Assembly (NCBI GenBank): GCA_951406725.2
Contig: OX597823.1
Location: 110,918,001-110,982,000 of the forward strand
DNA length: 64,000 nucleotides
Reading direction: 5' to 3'
From: Octopus vulgaris
Taxonomy: Eukaryota
Shown: piece by piece, positions 16,863 to 61,270 of the stretch
How the letters are laid out: every line of letters begins with the position of its first letter
Numbering within the stretch: the first letter of the stretch is position 1
Notes under the pieces: generated by a model
Told to the model about the DNA's origin: nothing
Database searches by the model: none
Seen by the model: only the letters and a program-made list of their open reading frames with translations
Program-made: the position numbers and the translations under genes

Positions 16863-17007
16863 TTTACATTACTTACATTTGACGGGTATTTGTCCTCATC
16901 TTGTTTGTTGTTAACACAACATTTCGGCTGATATACCCTCCAGCCTTCATCAGGTGTCTTCGGGAAATTTCGAACTTGGGTTCTTATTCCTAAGGTATTT
17001 TTTGACG
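16863..17007 (-). mobile_element. Penelope-like terminal-repeat fragment carrying a minimal hammerhead (16913-16958)
   Basis: Minus strand gacac-CTGATGA-a-ggctg-gagggtatat-cagcc-GAAA-tg-TT-gtgtt; second copy at 60352-60527; abuts (TTA)n. Confidence 0.7.
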
Positions 17008-17031
17008 TTATTATTATTATTATTATTATTA

Positions 17032-17103
<72 letters not shown>

Positions 17104-17104
<1 letters not shown>

Positions 17105-18750
17105 TCTTTTTTTTCTTCTTTCAAATTTGCTTCCATTTCTTGCCGAGTGTCTTCCCGACTCCTAGGGCAAAGAAACTCATAGTGTATATTGGTAGGCCAT
17201 TAAACCAAACTCAGTAGTTCGTTCATTTTTTTATTTTTTTAAAGTTAAATTAAAATACATGAGCAGCAACAGTTCTCACATCGACAATGCTCTTCTCAAT
17301 ACGTGTGATGTACCAGTTAAGACAATCTTTTGCACTTCTTGCAGGGATGGTAAGCCAGGGATCATTCTCATATAATTTTCGGTTCCCTTCTTGATCATTC
17401 CTAATGCTCCTACGATCACTGGTATTGTAACCGCCTTGAGATGCCACATTTTCTCAATTTCAATGAGTAGGTCTTTATATTTTCTGAGCTTGTCAAACTC
17501 TTTCGCTGAGATATTATGATCACAGGGGATGCTCATGTCGATCAATAAGCAAACTTTATTGATTTGGTCTTTCACAATAATATCTGGTTTATTGGCCTTG
17601 ATGGTTCGGTCTGTATGTACTGGAAAGTCCCACAGAATGGTTACATTTTCTCCTTCAGTTACAGCCTCAGGGTGGTGATTATACCACTTGTCGGCAGTTT
17701 TGATATTGTAATGCCGACTTATTAGCCAGTGTAGATATTGGCCAACTCTGTCATGTCTTAATTTATACTCCACTGGTGCTAAGACTTTACATCCAGAGAT
17801 TAGGTGGTCCACTGTTTCAATCATGTCGTTGCAGAATCGGCATTTTGGGTCTGCTCCATTTTTCATCACATTCGCCTGGTAGTTCCGGGTTAATAGGCTT
17901 TGATCTTGAGCAGCCAGGATGAAACCTTCGCTCTCTGCTTTTAGCCCTGAGCTCCGTAGCCACTGATGGGTTTGCTTCTGGTCAACATCAGCTTGTTTGC
18001 TTCGGGTCACAAATTTGCCGTGCAGAGGTATCTCCTCCCACCTATCAGCCAATTGCTCGTGCGCTTTATTCATTGCCATCATTTTCACCTTCTTTGCAAC
18101 AATAGTTGCCGTACTTCCCTCGGGTTGTTCAGTTTGGGTATCCTGCACGAGATCAATAGCAAATTTTTTGCTTTCCTTGATGATAGAATGAAGCTTCTTT
18201 CGTCTCTCGTGATTTTCCACGAGCTTTAGCATCCAGTCATTCGATATTTCGAGATATTTGGCCAGTCCAATTGTGGTTATTTTGTAAGCTAGTTCAAATG
18301 GGATCAGGCCTCGACCTCCTTGGGCTCTGGGAAGGTAAAGGTGATCTACATCTGCCTTTGGGTGGTGCATCCTATTACAACTCAGCAGCTTGCGTATTTT
18401 TCTATCTATATTCTTTACTTCACTCATATTCCAGTTCAACACATTGTAGCTATAAGTAACAACTGGAACTGCTAAGGAATTTATAGCTAACACCTTGTTA
18501 CGTGCATTTAGTTCAGATTTCAGGACTGCACGAACTCTCCTATAACATTCCTTCCTGATTTTCTCTTTCATGCTTGCATGCTGAATACCAGAGCCTTCAT
18601 TTATCCCTAAATATTTGTATGTTTGCTCTTGCTCAAGCTCTCTTATGACTGTGTCAACATCTAACACGACTGAATTTGTGGTCTTCACTTTCCCTTTCTG
18701 GAAAGTGGCCTTGGCACACTTCTCAAGTCCAAACTCCATCCCAATGTCAT
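17104..18750 (-). mobile_element. R4/Dong-clade non-LTR retrotransposon, 5'-truncated, inserted in (TAA)n
   Basis: Flanked on both sides by TTA runs (17008-17103, 18751-18792); about 170-bp 3'UTR ending in an A-rich tail; ORF described separately. Confidence 0.92.
17276..18739 (-). CDS. Partial retrotransposon polyprotein: RT C-terminus/thumb, CCHC zinc knuckle and restriction-like endonuclease
   Basis: 487-aa uninterrupted frame with (D)IGMEFGLEKCA, YKYLG, LYLPRAQGGRGL, CRFC-x8-HLISGC, RHD, ILWDF, KPDII..LLIDMSIP..KLRKYKDL (PD-D/ExK nuclease). The start is a truncation point, not a true initiator. Confidence 0.93.
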   Translation of the reverse strand: MEFGLEKCAKATFQKGKVKTTNSVVLDVDTVIRELEQEQTYKYLGINEGSGIQHASMKEKIRKECYRRVRAVLKSELNARNKVLAINSLAVPVVTYSYNVLNWNMSEVKNIDRKIRKLLSCNRMHHPKADVDHLYLPRAQGGRGLIPFELAYKITTIGLAKYLEISNDWMLKLVENHERRKKLHSIIKESKKFAIDLVQDTQTEQPEGSTATIVAKKVKMMAMNKAHEQLADRWEEIPLHGKFVTRSKQADVDQKQTHQWLRSSGLKAESEGFILAAQDQSLLTRNYQANVMKNGADPKCRFCNDMIETVDHLISGCKVLAPVEYKLRHDRVGQYLHWLISRHYNIKTADKWYNHHPEAVTEGENVTILWDFPVHTDRTIKANKPDIIVKDQINKVCLLIDMSIPCDHNISAKEFDKLRKYKDLLIEIEKMWHLKAVTIPVIVGALGMIKKGTENYMRMIPGLPSLQEVQKIVLTGTSHVLRRALSM

Positions 18751-18758
18751 ATTATTAA

Positions 18759-26232: not shown

Positions 26233-26830
26233 TCATCATCATCATCATCATCGTTAAACATCCATCTTCCATGCTGGCATTGGTTGGACGGTTTGACTGA
26301 GGTCCGGAGAGCCAGTGGCTGCACCAGGCTCCAATCTTGATCTGGAAATGTTTCTACAGCTGGATGACTTTCCTAACACCAACCACTCCGAGAGTGTAGT
26401 GGGTGCTTTTCACATGCCATCAGCACGGGAGCCAGTCAGGTGACCCTGTCATTGATTGGATAGTGCTTTTCACATGCCACCAGCACTGGAACCAGTACTA
26501 GCATTGGCCATGTGCAGTTGGTGTTTTTTACGTGCCACTGGTATGAGAGCCAGTCAGGGGTTGCTGACATCAGCCATGTTTCGATGGTGCTTTTTACATG
26601 CCAACAGTATGGGAGCTAGTCAGGTGGTCCTGGCATTGACCACGTTTGGGTGGTGCTTTTACGTGCCACCAGCATGGGAACCAGTCAGGTGGTCCTGGCA
26701 TTGACCACGTTTGGATGGTGCTTTTTACGTGCCACCAGCACAGGAGCCAGTCAGGGGGCACTGGCCACACCTACAATATTGGTTTTACTTGACTCAACAG
26801 GTCTTCTCAAGCATATTATATCACAAGATG
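26233..26830 (-). mobile_element. RTE-type 3'UTR with about six internal 59-66-bp tandem units
   Basis: (CAT)n tail followed by repeated ggtgcttttacgtgccaccagca..ccagtcagg units starting near 26402, 26462, 26521, 26586, 26652 and 26717. Confidence 0.85.
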
Positions 26831-36341: not shown

Positions 36342-36756
36342 AATACTACTACTGTTATTGGTACTGCTATCAATAAAACACTGCTTGCTAATCATCACCA
36401 TAGTCCTTTCTTATCCTTTTCTTTTACTTCTCCTTCACTCATTTTCTCTTCTTTTCATTCTTCTCATTTGCATATAGCTCCACCTTCATTACACTTCTTC
36501 TTCTCATTTACATAATCAATTCACATTTTCACGTCCTCTTTCATGTCCTAACTGCAATAAAGTACCTGTAAACTATTCAGGCTTGATAACATACCCATCA
36601 CTTCCAAGCATGTGTCATCATACATTAAACAAAGATTCAACAGCACCAGTCCTTTTTCTCCCAATATTCCAGTTTTCTTCATGAATTTATCTCTCTTTCT
36701 GCTCCTTCATTTTCTTCTTACTCTTGTTTCTTCTTATCTTTCATTATCCTTATTCT

Positions 36757-37122
36757 CTCTTTACTCTTTTACTTGCAAATCGACCCCGGGACTTATTCTT
36801 TGTAAGCCCAGTGCTTATTCTATCGGTCTCATTTGCCGAACCGTTAAGTTACGAGGATGTAAACACACCAGCATCGGTTGTCAAGCAATGCTAGTGGGAC
36901 AAACACAGACACACAAACACACACACACACATATACATATATATATATATACATATATACGACAGGCTTCTTTCAGTTTCCATCTACCAAATCCACTCAC
37001 AAGGCATTGGTCGGCCCGGGGCTATAGCAGAAGACACTTGCCCAAGATGCCACGCAGTGGGACTGAACTCGGAAACATGTGGTTGGTGAGCAAGCTACTT
37101 ACCACACAGCCACTCCTGCGCC
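36757..37122 (-). mobile_element. SINE family A with a deletion of about 50 bp near the tail
   Basis: Reverse complement of family A ending cagccactcctgcgcc. Confidence 0.9.
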
Positions 37123-37247
37123 TTTATTATTAATATTGTTTCTCCATTTTACATCTCTTTTTCATGATGGCGTTGATAGGACAAAATGGTATTTCACAGT
37201 CAGATACCAACCAGTCCTGCAGCCAGTTTTTACTTGTGCTTCAACTA

Positions 37248-37667
37248 GGCGCAGGAGTGGCTGTGTGGTAAGTAGCTTGCTTACCAACCACATGGTTCCA
37301 GGTTCAGTCCCACTGCGTGGCACCTTGGGCAAGTGTCTTCTACTATAGCCTCAGGCCAACCAAAACCTTGTGAGTGGATTTGGTAGACGGAAACTGAAAG
37401 AAGCCTGTCGTACATATATATATATATATATATATACATATATATATAGTGTGTATTTGTGTGTCTGTGTTTGTCCTCCCAACATCGCTTGACAACCGAT
37501 GCTGGTGTATTTACATCTCCGTAACTTAGCGGTTCGGCAATAGAGACCGATAGAATAAGTACTAGGCTTACAAAGAATAAGTCATGGGGTCGATTTGCTC
37601 AACTAAAGGCGGTGCTCCAGCATGGCGGCAGTCAAATGACTGAAACAAGTAAAAGAGTAAAAGAGTA
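37248..37667 (+). mobile_element. SINE family A, full length, young
   Basis: ggcgcaggagtggctgtgtggtaagtagc..gactgaaacaagtaaaagagtaaaagagt. Confidence 0.92.
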
Positions 37668-37846
37668 AGGGATATTGTATTCCATTACTTGTCACAAGTC
37701 AAAACAGCAAAGGTATAAGCTGTATTGTTTTCAGGGTATGTAAACATGACTTCACTGTTTCACTCAAAAAATACCATGCAAAGTCATGCAAAATATAAAC
37801 ATTCACACACACACTAACATCATTACCATCACTACTATCATTATCA

Positions 37847-38360
37847 TCACATAGCTAGCTAGAGCTGATGGCCTCTTGGAGCTAATCAACGGCGGTATTT
37901 GTCCTATTTATCTGGACTGCCATGTTAACTTGGCGGTAACTATTAATATCCAGTACCGCTGCCATAGTCTCGTTTAGAGAGAATTAGAAATAATAATATT
38001 TCTATTTTTGAAAACCAGTGGATGTATTCCACTGAATTTAGATAGATAATCCTTCGAACAGACGGTCAACAGCAATGCCTGCTGGGTTTGACTACTCCAC
38101 ATTGATAAGGGGCAACTAACCCGAAACTAGTCTGTGGTTGCCAAACCAGCAAGGAGAAGCTGCTGACATCCCCTGTTCAATGGGTATAAGGGACACAGGT
38201 TTGTGTGTCACATAGCTAGAGGCGATGGCCTCTCGGAGCTAATCAACGACAGCATTCGTCCTATTTTTCTAGACTGCCATGTTAGCTTGGCAATAACTAT
38301 TAATATCCGGTATGGCTGCTGTAGTATCCTTTAGAGAGAATTAGAAATAATGATATTTCT
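37847..38360 (+). mobile_element. Retrozyme-like element: about 1.4 copies of a roughly 360-bp structured monomer with a central hammerhead
   Basis: Direct repeats 37847-38003 and 38208-38360; no ORF; multiple hairpins; hammerhead at 38097-38137. Confidence 0.75.
38097..38137 (+). ncRNA. Type I hammerhead ribozyme, U3:A8 core variant
   Basis: ccaca-TTGATAA-g-ggg-caactaa-ccc-GAAA-ctag-TC-tgtgg; perfect stem I, palindromic stem III (ACTAGT), GUC cleavage site; stem I extends into a rod spanning 38056-38178. Confidence 0.8.
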
Positions 38361-38653
38361 TTATATATCATTATTATTATCATTTGCTTACCATGGCATG
38401 GGTTAAATAGTATGTCACAGTCTGTGTCATTTCTTAATGAGGGCTTCTGCTCCCATAAAGTAAACCTTATATGTGTCATCTGGCTTGGTTTCTACAGCTG
38501 AATACACTATCTGTCTCCAAACATTTCACAGAATATACTGGGTATGTTTTCTTGTGGCACCACCATTAGAGAAGACAAGATTAAAAGCAATCTCAAAATC
38601 CAATACTAACACTGTTTATTTAAAAATTATTAGTAATGTGTAGTTATATATAT

Positions 38654-38882
38654 ATTTCTTTACTACCCACAAGGGGCTAAACAAGAGAGGACAAACAAGG
38701 ACAGACAAACGGATTAAGTTGATTACATCGACCCCAATGCATAACTGGTACTTAATTTATCGCCCTGAAAGGATGAAAGGCAAAGTCGACCTCGGTGGAA
38801 TTTGAACTCAGAACGTAACGGCAGACGAAATATGGCTACACATTTCACCCTGTGTGCTAACGTTTCTGCCAGCTCGCCACCT
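38654..38882 (-). mobile_element. SINE family B, full length, with target-site duplication
   Basis: Reverse complement of family B; flanks tgtgtagtta(t/c)ata on both sides. Confidence 0.9.
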
Positions 38883-39791
38883 TACTGTGTAGTTACATAT
38901 ATGTCGTATATAATACTAGCTGCATTTTTTACAAGGCACCAGCACTAGAGAACTTTTCTTGTTCCTCAACCACACTAGAGGGAGTGCAGCATGGTAGATG
39001 GGCAGGAGGAGGGTGGCTTGTACACAGTTTATATAAAGAGTGCCCGATTATCAAAGACATGTAGATCAAGGAGGGGAATAGGGGAGGGACTGATGATCAT
39101 TAACAACAATTTTGCTGAGGCTACAATTCTTCAGTTTTGAAGAATAGGTGTAATCTTGGTGTTCTAGTGATCTGATGAGCTATCTTTTTTATCTGCACTG
39201 ATCTATAAACATACAATTGTATTGTATAATAATATGTAACACACACATTAGTGCAGACATCAAAAATATATTATTAGACACTGAAATTAATAATATGGTG
39301 ATGAAGGCTGTGAAACAGCTGTAATCCTAAAGATGACAAGTGATTGAATAGATATATACACCTCTCACACCTTTTGACTTTTTATAATTATAGGTGTGTA
39401 TGCATGGGTGTGTGTGTGTTTAATTTATGTGTTAGCATGGTTGGAACAAGCTTTATTGAAGCAATAATCTACAATCATTTGCATTTCCTTATACAAAAAC
39501 CTAGTTATTTTTCACAAACAGAATTTTCAATTCAGCTGGTGAAACTACTGACCTTCAGAACATGATGTTTATAGAAGACATAAACGAATACCAATCTTTG
39601 TCAAACTGTGTTAATGTAAAAAACATGCAAAGATACACACACACACACACACACACACATCATATTGTCAGCATCATTGTTTTAATAACCTCTGACCCAT
39701 GCTTGCATTGGTCAAACAAACTTCATTGAAACAGATTCTTTATGGCTGGATAACCTTATTTTACCTATTTCCATATTAATATTTCATCCAC

Positions 39792-55119: not shown

Positions 55120-55428
55120 TACGCAGTCATAACCCTGTGCTTGAGGAGACCTATTGAGTCAAGTACATCAACATCAAAAATCAATGGAAATTGTAGTTGT
55201 GATCCCTGTGCTGGTGGCACATAAAAAGTACCATCTGAACGTGGCCGATGCCAGTGCCGCCTTGAGTGGCTTCCGTGCCGGTAGCATGTAAAAAGCACCA
55301 TCTGAACGTGGCCGATGCCAGTGCCGCCTTGACTGGCTTCCATGCCTTCTGGCTTCCCAGATTCCAGTCGAACCGTCCAACCCATGCTAGCATGGAAATG
55401 GACGTTAAACGATGATCATGATGATGAT
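55120..55428 (+). mobile_element. RTE-type 3'UTR fragment with tandem units and (GAT)n tail
   Basis: Two copies of accatctgaacgtggccgatgccagtgccgccttga; ends gacgttaaacgatgat. Confidence 0.85.
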
Positions 55429-60351: not shown

Positions 60352-60527
60352 TTGTTCTATATTTAAGAGATGAGGAATTATGTACATTATTTACATTTGA
60401 CAGATATTTGTCCTCATCTTGTTTGTTGTTAACACAACGTTTCAGCTGATATACCCTCCAGCCTTCTTCAGGTGTCTTGTGGAAATTTCGAATCTGGGTT
60501 CTCATTCCAATGGTATTTTTCAATGTT
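60352..60527 (-). mobile_element. Penelope-like terminal-repeat fragment with minimal hammerhead (60431-60476)
   Basis: Minus strand gacac-CTGAAGA-a-ggctg-gagggtatat-cagct-GAAA-cg-TT-gtgtt; palindromic stem III AACGTT; homolog of 16863-17007. Confidence 0.72.
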
Positions 60528-60652
60528 GTTATTATTATCATTATTATTATTATTATTGTTGTTGTTGTTGTTGTTCTTCTTCTTCTTCTTGTTCTTCTTC
60601 TTCTTCTTCTTCTTCTTCTTCTTCTTCTTCTTCTTCTTCTTGTTGTTGTTGC

Positions 60653-60870: not shown

Positions 60871-60884
60871 TGATAGAAAAATCT

Positions 60885-61270
60885 GCACCATCTAAAGGCA
60901 GATGTTGATCATCTTTACCTTTCCACAGCTCAGGGAGGTTGAGGCTTGATCCAGCTTGAACTTACATACAAAACCACCACAATCGGACTGGCCAAAATAC
61001 CTTGAAACAACCAACGATTGAATGCTAAAACTTGTTGAAAAACATGAAAGACTGAAAAAACTTCACTCTATTATGAAAGAGAGCAAAAACTTCGCAACTG
61101 ATCTCTTATGAAGGAAATGCGGCAACTGCTGCTGCAAAGAAAATAAAATTAATTGCAAAGACAAAAGCACATGAAAAATTAGCAAGCAGATGGGAACAGA
61201 AACCTCTGCATGGCAAGTATGTGGCCCATAGCAAACAAACTGATGTCGACCAGAAACACATGCATCAATT
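60885..61270 (+). mobile_element. Degraded internal fragment of the R4/Dong family found at 17104-18750
   Basis: HHLKADVDHLYLSTAQGG*GLIQLELTYKTTTIGLAK..MLKLVEKHERLKKLHSIMKESK..RWEQKPLHGKY..DVDQK aligns by eye to the 487-aa ORF; follows (TAA)n. Confidence 0.9.

Follow-up and report, generated by a model that had tools for sequence, protein, structure and literature searches.

The closest described counterparts of the element reported here are the non-LTR retrozymes of metazoans, with units of 350-390 bp in Mytilus galloprovincialis and of 330/350 bp in the axolotl, and with circular RNAs that build up in mussel, coral and axolotl (PMC7229834). In the review text available, animal retrozymes are described as showing no motif that points to a mobilising element (PMC7761336), and a 2026 preprint on vertebrate retrozymes by Li, Clavereau and Pollet, which proposes a non-autonomous relationship to Penelope-like elements, calls for the mechanism of mobilisation to be worked out (bioRxiv 10.64898/2026.07.22.740005). 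As far as the accessible text of that preprint goes, the case for this relationship rests on co-occurrence and on homology with Xenopus pLTR sequence, with no mapping of insertion ends; its sample comprises 31 vertebrates, three insects and one coral, and solo monomers are read as inactive offspring (bioRxiv 10.64898/2026.07.22.740005).

Penelope-like elements leave marks of their own, namely clustered 3' ends, variable 5' ends, partial tandems and inversions (PMC8557442, PMC3846280), together with duplications of 8-10 bp (PMC3846280). In the Penelope-like element of the anole, reverse transcription starts at two sites inside the RNA, downstream of the hammerhead, and the stretch between the two is an optional tail (PMC11167929). 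For Octopus vulgaris, a paper on repeats reports 31 recently active Penelope-like families and, in its accessible text, mentions neither 'ribozyme' nor 'retrozyme' (PMC13282606). A cephalopod retrozyme was found in none of the main texts covered by the literature search, which left subscription journals largely outside, and the supplement of PMC7229834 may list further invertebrate ones; the family described below may also stand under another name in repeat libraries.

The window analysed here, a stretch of 64,000 nt from the Octopus vulgaris contig OX597823.1, consists of AT-rich DNA of animal type, with 123 rows of tandem repeats and many copies of two SINE-like repeats. The insertion under study is made up of the following parts:

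37847-38362, plus strand: whole insertion, 516 nt, non-coding, 1.43 units, GC about 42%
37847-38005, plus strand: repeat 1, the last 159 nt of the unit on its 3' side, interpreted as an upstream copy that lacks its 5' part, like a pseudo-LTR
38006-38207, plus strand: single-copy part of the unit, predicted to fold into a long arm, about 38046-38190, tipped by the hammerhead
38208-38362, plus strand: repeat 2, the 3' end of the unit, whose finish is the second clustered 3' end of the family (38005 and 38362 correspond in register)
38307-38362, plus strand: 56 nt between the two clustered 3' ends, a candidate counterpart of the optional Penelope tail

A repeat search of the window returned the direct repeat pair 37856-38003 and 38213-38360, each 148 nt long, 86% identical and spaced by 357 nt. 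When the element was compared with the window by BLAST, this self-match had an E value of 1e-46, and there was no second match of the element apart from microsatellites. Leftward extension across a 4-nt indel carries the repeat match to 37847 and 38208 and gives a unit of 361 nt, while without the indel, which contig differences show to be polymorphic in the family, the unit measures 357 nt. The initial annotation, which had 37847-38003 repeated at 38208-38360 with a period of about 360, thus described the layout correctly, and the 516 nt of the insertion amount to 1.43 units of 361 nt. Its statement that the insertion is not very recent also holds, the repeats differing at 20 of 148 aligned bases, with 15 of the 20 mismatches being transitions.

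As had likewise been noted, the element contains no long open reading frame: across six frames, the longest stop-free stretch covers 55 codons and the longest ATG-started one 42 codons, and no reading frame for a reverse transcriptase (RT) or GIY-YIG protein is present in it. An autonomous Penelope-like element is thereby ruled out at this locus. A search for tRNA genes over 36500-39500 (ARAGORN) returned none, no primer-binding site or polypurine tract can be discerned around the repeats where one would be expected, and the repeats start with TC and finish with AT/TT, not TG..CA. The GC content of the unit is 41.6%. Folded as a circle, the monomer is predicted to be unusually stable, with z scores of -4.9 and -3.3 in two registers and none of 60 shuffles as stable in either, while three flanking stretches used as controls gave +0.4, -1.1 and -0.5.

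Just to the left of the element, two copies of an abundant SINE-like repeat (36775-37123 and 37247-37598) form an inverted pair, 123 nt apart and 89-92% complementary. Tandem arrays of a GC-richer unit of 66-67 nt, at 26402-26765 and 55208-55346, represent another dispersed repeat family of the window.

The single-copy part had been said to contain a hammerhead, and by hand reading and a descriptor scan, not by Rfam, 38080-38151 on the plus strand indeed matches a complete type I hammerhead at the sequence level. It is composed as follows:

38080-38092 / 38140-38151, plus strand: distal stem of 12 bp, beyond helix I and the bulge
38093-38095, plus strand: bulge of 3 nt, opposite U38139
38096-38101 / 38133-38138, plus strand: helix I, 6 bp
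38102-38108, plus strand: core, in which U3 and A8 replace C3 and G8
38109-38112 / 38119-38122, plus strand: helix II, 4 bp, with a 6-nt loop
38123-38126, plus strand: GAAA
38127-38130, plus strand: palindromic tetraloop of helix III, which is a single A-U pair
after C38132, plus strand: predicted cleavage site

The letters of its bulge and loop presumably resemble those of the Schistosoma hammerhead. The hand-written type I descriptor, which permitted either C3-G8 or U3-A8, matched at 38102 on the plus strand; it found three matches in the window, as against 0.16 per shuffled window (100 shuffles), and the shuffled expectation falls to 0.07 when helix I is at least 5 bp long. Rfam returned no match of any kind across the window at its gathering score and no hammerhead match at E of 10 or below over 37700-38500, and five weak matches to snoRNA and miRNA models were set aside as chance. 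For 38080-38160, the fold of minimum energy is predicted to contain helices I and II but does not reproduce the three-way catalytic fold in full (z -0.9).

The core was at one point read as carrying two inactivating mutations. This reading was dropped, as positions 3 and 8 pair and U3-A8 is a natural covariation known from about 1,300 Schistosoma motifs, among them cores reported from Penelope-like elements; the 6-bp helix I, 4-bp helix II and short palindromic helix III are those of canonical animal hammerheads (PMC4209133). This paper is the single source on U3-A8 cores that was found, in a search that left subscription journals largely outside. A pseudoknot between loop II and the 3' strand, seen in the window copy, was also set aside, since it is partly lost with the letter that the family has at 38138.

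Comparison with other copies covers the 40 difference rows listed out of 174. Three of these rows lie in the hammerhead, at 38091, 38119 and 38138, and at every one of them the majority letter of the family brings back a Watson-Crick pair. Ten pairs of the hammerhead arm are touched by majority letters in the listed rows, of which eight improve, one worsens and one is unchanged; the arm helices follow the predicted fold of the window copy and were lengthened in register once the majority letters were known, and the check excludes the rows of two repeat hairpins, the 37983 hairpin and the 38017 hairpin. Recounted separately, the repeat hairpin gave a mixed result (three pairs improved, four worsened, one spurious row dropped). 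The improvement of eight of ten arm pairs implies that the hammerhead fold is conserved in the family and that the window copy has decayed. Since no difference row falls at 38102 or 38107 among those listed, the U3-A8 core is probably the family state, as judged from sequence. That the family is real and its hammerhead conserved is scarcely in doubt.

Two further hammerhead-like motifs lie on the minus strand of the window, at 16865-17120 (core at 16953) and 60383-60638 (core at 60471). They are 83% alike over 256 nt, and each follows a (TAA)n run. Their helix II is long and their core is followed by a base that does not pair, which is the minimal form typical of Penelope-like pLTRs; their sequence is unrelated to the retrozyme unit. 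On the same strand, 17276-18751 holds a stop-to-stop frame of 491 codons, with TAA-type runs on either side, a weak zf-RVT match (E 9e-4, below the cut-off) and, by eye, a restriction-like endonuclease motif, which we take to be the 3' half of an R4/Dong-like LINE. A decayed second piece of this LINE-like sequence lies at 60884-61267.

Motif scans gave no match in viral contigs and one in metagenome contigs, the latter without likeness to the unit outside the core. This match, a U3-A8 type I hammerhead at 1316-1347 of the unrelated contig L001, lies behind a LINE-like remnant and has an identical palindromic helix III and a helix I of 4 bp, which the search pattern did not require. Abundant hammerheads with a U3-A8 core escape Rfam as well as descriptors that require C3-G8.

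Part of the stretch is present in 20 of 24 listed sequencing runs, which come from five organisms and 11 studies. No RNA run is listed among those that contain it. Contigs of four of the 24 were aligned to the element: the DNA runs X1, X4 and X9, from organisms A, B and E, and X19. Those aligning numbered 2,898 (X1), 3,352 (X4) and 2,295 (X9), which are numbers of contigs and not copy numbers. The summed contig depth of X1, again not a copy number, lies between 3,700 and 146,000 over 37845-38372, as against 0-70 in most flank bins; over the three DNA runs it ranges from thousands to hundreds of thousands on the element, with tens on most of the flanks. The family is of very high copy number in three organisms or more. 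Contig depth is not usable as a measure of truncation, since its dip over the hammerhead may reflect local divergence or contig breaks. X19, whose RNA origin is a guess, contributed 228 family contigs with a depth profile resembling that of the DNA runs, and so speaks for neither expression nor circles. Assembled contigs do not reveal strand, ends or circles. In the right flank, the depth of the DNA runs rises to 290-1,260 over 38472-38570, compared with tens in the vicinity, and marks a separate low-copy repeat.

In the four runs, 49, 46, 20 and 5 contigs run leftward beyond 37847 and continue with the final stretch of the unique part, and listed pieces span both unit junctions, 38005|38006 and 38207|38208; together these show that the unit closes head to tail. 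A second copy of greater than unit length, record 26 of X9, covers 37902-38300 (399 nt) and has its own flanks on both sides. This is the longest piece among the contigs listed, none of which carries two hammerheads, short contigs being unable to hold arrays. Four diverged pieces from X1 and X4 (37905-38115) stop at 38115, inside loop II of the hammerhead, with 67-159 unaligned letters beyond; they appear to represent two loci, each seen in A and B, are 81-84% alike, and may belong to a sister family or to a longer parent element.

The family thus has the properties by which retrozymes are recognised at the sequence level: a unit of 357/361 nt, within the range of 150-450 bp, a GC content below 50%, a type I hammerhead and many copies. 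It resembles the metazoan non-LTR retrozymes in the size of the unit, in being non-coding with a GC content below 45%, in its canonical type I hammerhead, in having no LTR, primer-binding site or polypurine tract, and in its stable predicted circle and many copies, and it shares with HHR_Amex1 of the axolotl a one-pair helix III with a palindromic tetraloop (PMC7229834). It differs from them in its U3-A8 core in place of C3-G8 and in the single hammerhead at the locus.

The ends of the copies were examined among 24 listed of 1,079 loose-end rows and 15 listed of 101 joints. All four listed rows with mixed long flanks (agreement 0.48-0.49, median flank 98-255 nt) fall at two positions of the unit, 56 nt apart: 27 contigs behind 38306 in X1, and 20 behind 38305, 39 behind 38306 and 16 behind 38005 in X4. 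These clustered 3' ends lie 174 and 230 nt downstream of the predicted cleavage site, the distal one being equivalent to 38362, where this copy ends. The two-site cluster is absent among the six rows listed for X9 and for X19. Right ends with at least 20 unaligned letters fall at 38300-38306 in four of 14 listed cases, at 38115 in four and elsewhere in six, three of the last being at private changes or at the indel of the window copy. Left ends with at least 30 unaligned letters are spread over 37889 to 38231 in the listed pieces. Nine of the 15 listed joints are to the opposite strand, at varied positions, and six are common to X1 and X4. Inversions are known in other target-primed elements too.

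This pattern agrees with the Penelope-style partial tandem that the initial annotation had named as one option, in its two 3' clusters, varying 5' ends and inversions. The same annotation had set circularly permuted, variable endpoints, as support for a circular template, against the fixed endpoints of an LTR-type element; the 5' ends are indeed variable, but the 3' ends in the listed rows of X1 and X4 cluster at two sites and so are neither permuted nor LTR-fixed, and the test as framed there is a false choice. As in Penelope-like elements such as Penelope/Poseidon and Neptune, there is a partial tandem whose upstream copy is 5'-truncated, joints are frequently inverted, two 3' ends downstream of the hammerhead seem to be favoured among the listed rows, the target appears to be a simple repeat and an 11-bp duplication is possible; unlike them, the unit has no RT/GIY-YIG reading frame, measures 361 nt instead of about 3 kb, has a canonical and not a minimal hammerhead, and shows an interval of 56 nt between its 3' ends as against a tail of 30-40 bp (PMC11167929, PMC3846280, PMC8557442). 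The non-autonomous Penelope relationship proposed here is the same as that proposed for vertebrate retrozymes (bioRxiv 10.64898/2026.07.22.740005), with the difference that the link is made by the pattern of ends, without a homologous Penelope-like element in the window.

The history of the insertion can be read in part from its repeats and flanks. Within the repeats, 14 majority letters are listed; every one of them sits at a column where the two repeats mismatch and is the letter found in the opposite repeat, seven per repeat. Each repeat has therefore drifted separately by about 7% from the family state, as if both had been written at one time. The right junction is kept, with one difference each, in X1 record 8 (38339-38645) and X4 record 24 (38331-38645), so the insertion is common to organisms A and B. 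In organism E, whose flanks are 9-10% different, flank contigs align up to 37845 and again from 38373 on, leaving 65 and 72 letters unaligned; this hints at an empty site, with no joint across it among those listed. Two short stretches form a candidate target-site duplication:

37836-37846, plus strand: left candidate of 11 nt, situated in a microsatellite-like (ATC/ATT)n run
38366-38376, plus strand: right candidate, 3 nt past the end of the element, of low complexity

The two are identical at 10 of 11 positions, a weak candidate since the DNA is of low complexity and its 9-nt core is found 17 times in the window. The mixed flanks behind the copy ends have an AT-rich consensus, which in an AT-rich genome says little about target choice.

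Considered as a whole, the evidence makes it reasonably likely that the insertion is one dispersed and decayed member of a high-copy non-LTR retrozyme family moved by Penelope-type machinery from a circular template. That the family spread by retrotransposition is very probable, and that Penelope-type machinery mobilises it is likely. Tandem source copies would be transcribed, and their type I hammerheads, with a palindromic helix III of one pair, would probably act as dimers and cut out monomers, which a host ligase would close into circles. An autonomous Penelope-like element would then supply its RT/GIY-YIG protein to nick AT-rich simple-repeat DNA, and reverse transcription would begin inside the RNA at either of two favoured sites, 174 or 230 nt past the cleavage site, and copy a variable length, here 1.43 turns from the distal site. 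Parsed in the Penelope style, the locus may be seen as one full unit, 37950-38306, preceded by a copy without its 5' part, 37847-37949, and followed by a tail of 56 nt. Self-cleavage, dimer dependence, circles and the partner enzyme are what we infer for the family; BLAST brought to light no autonomous element in the window to which the unit is related in sequence. With one hammerhead and three pair-breaking changes, the window copy cannot release a monomer alone, and is probably a dead end.

The form of the template is the point at which the strongest alternative arises. Because the insertion runs through an intact cleavage site (after 38132), the template was either a circle or an uncut multimer, and a cleaved linear monomer would have required a template jump. 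A circle is modestly favoured over a linear template, since the full hammerhead on its long closing arm has been kept and units of similar size are circular in mussel, coral and axolotl. The length of more than one unit is not in itself proof of a circle, as uncut RNA was the main substrate of the anole protein in vitro and hammerhead mutants left insertion unaffected (PMC11167929). Of what the initial annotation had concluded, the multi-copy hammerhead insertion of greater than unit length therefore stands, whereas the circular template does not follow, as the ends fit a linear multimer too. It is accordingly conceivable, if on balance unlikely, that the same family was mobilised in the Penelope manner from a linear, uncut multimer, or by a jump of the reverse transcriptase between monomers, with no need of a circle. 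The one-pair helix III, which implies slow cleavage of monomers (PMC7229834), would suit uncut RNA. The conservation of the full hammerhead, bulge, distal stem and long closing arm in turn suggests selection for cleavage, units of similar size do form circles in the three animals named (PMC7229834), and the seven-and-seven split of changes fits one unit copied twice, with which a near-identical multimer is also compatible.

Improbable is the reading in which there is no separate short family and the sequence is what is left of a longer autonomous Penelope-like element, either its pseudo-LTR or a remnant of its 3' part. In favour of this reading, the copy ends follow the Penelope-like pattern, U3-A8 cores come from Schistosoma Penelope-like elements (PMC4209133), Xenopus retrozymes share pLTR sequence (bioRxiv 10.64898/2026.07.22.740005), and the four diverged pieces ending at 38115 continue into 67-159 unaligned letters. 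Yet the best-supported upstream loose ends lead into the unit itself, no fixed foreign upstream sequence occurs among the 24 rows listed of 1,079, and the hammerhead, with its 4-bp helix II and distal contacts, is canonical and not of the minimal pLTR type.

Still less probable is the movement of the retrozyme by some other target-primed element, such as R4/Dong-like or RTE LINEs. A remnant of a LINE of the restriction-like endonuclease (REL) type lies between TAA-type runs in the window, and Dong-R4 and RTE elements have recently been active in Octopus vulgaris (PMC13282606). However, the unit has no similarity to the 3' end of the LINE in the window, and a Penelope-like element agrees better with the frequent inversions and with a pair of internal 3' ends that carry neither poly(A) nor a repeat tail.

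It is very improbable that an insertion shorter than one unit was afterwards duplicated in part where it stood, or that the locus is a local duplication of single copy, and the latter had been named at the outset as an observation that would overturn the reading of the locus. The flanks are simple repeats, which are prone to slippage and unequal exchange; against this, copies of the family are numerous, the two unit junctions are commonly seen in copies elsewhere, and no derived change is shared in 14 informative rows, the seven private changes in either repeat disfavouring the local duplication of an old copy. Copy number, junctions and independent changes thus largely refute this explanation. 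A TRIM or an LTR-type retrozyme with 155-bp LTRs can practically be dismissed: two short direct repeats around a short, unique middle and a hammerhead do recall plant LTR retrozymes and TRIMs, but the hammerhead is of type I and not type III and lies outside the repeats, the LTR marks proposed as a refutation in the initial annotation (TG..CA ends, primer-binding site, polypurine tract) are all missing, as is a 4-bp duplication, and 37847 is not a family boundary, other copies continuing leftward beyond it.

The preferred reading, a retrozyme family moved by Penelope-type machinery, gains its interest from the family and not from the locus, which is an ordinary dead copy; its usefulness lies in the pattern of the family's ends. 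Clustered 3' ends and inversions in a family of very high copy number make the link between retrozymes and Penelope-like elements testable from an assembly alone. It is possible, though short of probable, that this is a cephalopod retrozyme family with a U3-A8 core and the full Penelope signature of two internal starts of reverse transcription, an optional tail and 5' inversions, whose copies exceed one turn of a circular RNA. If so, many dated copies in several related genomes would provide direct evidence, at the level of insertions, on the enzyme that moves animal retrozymes, and would also test whether the partial tandems of Penelope-like elements arise from circles.
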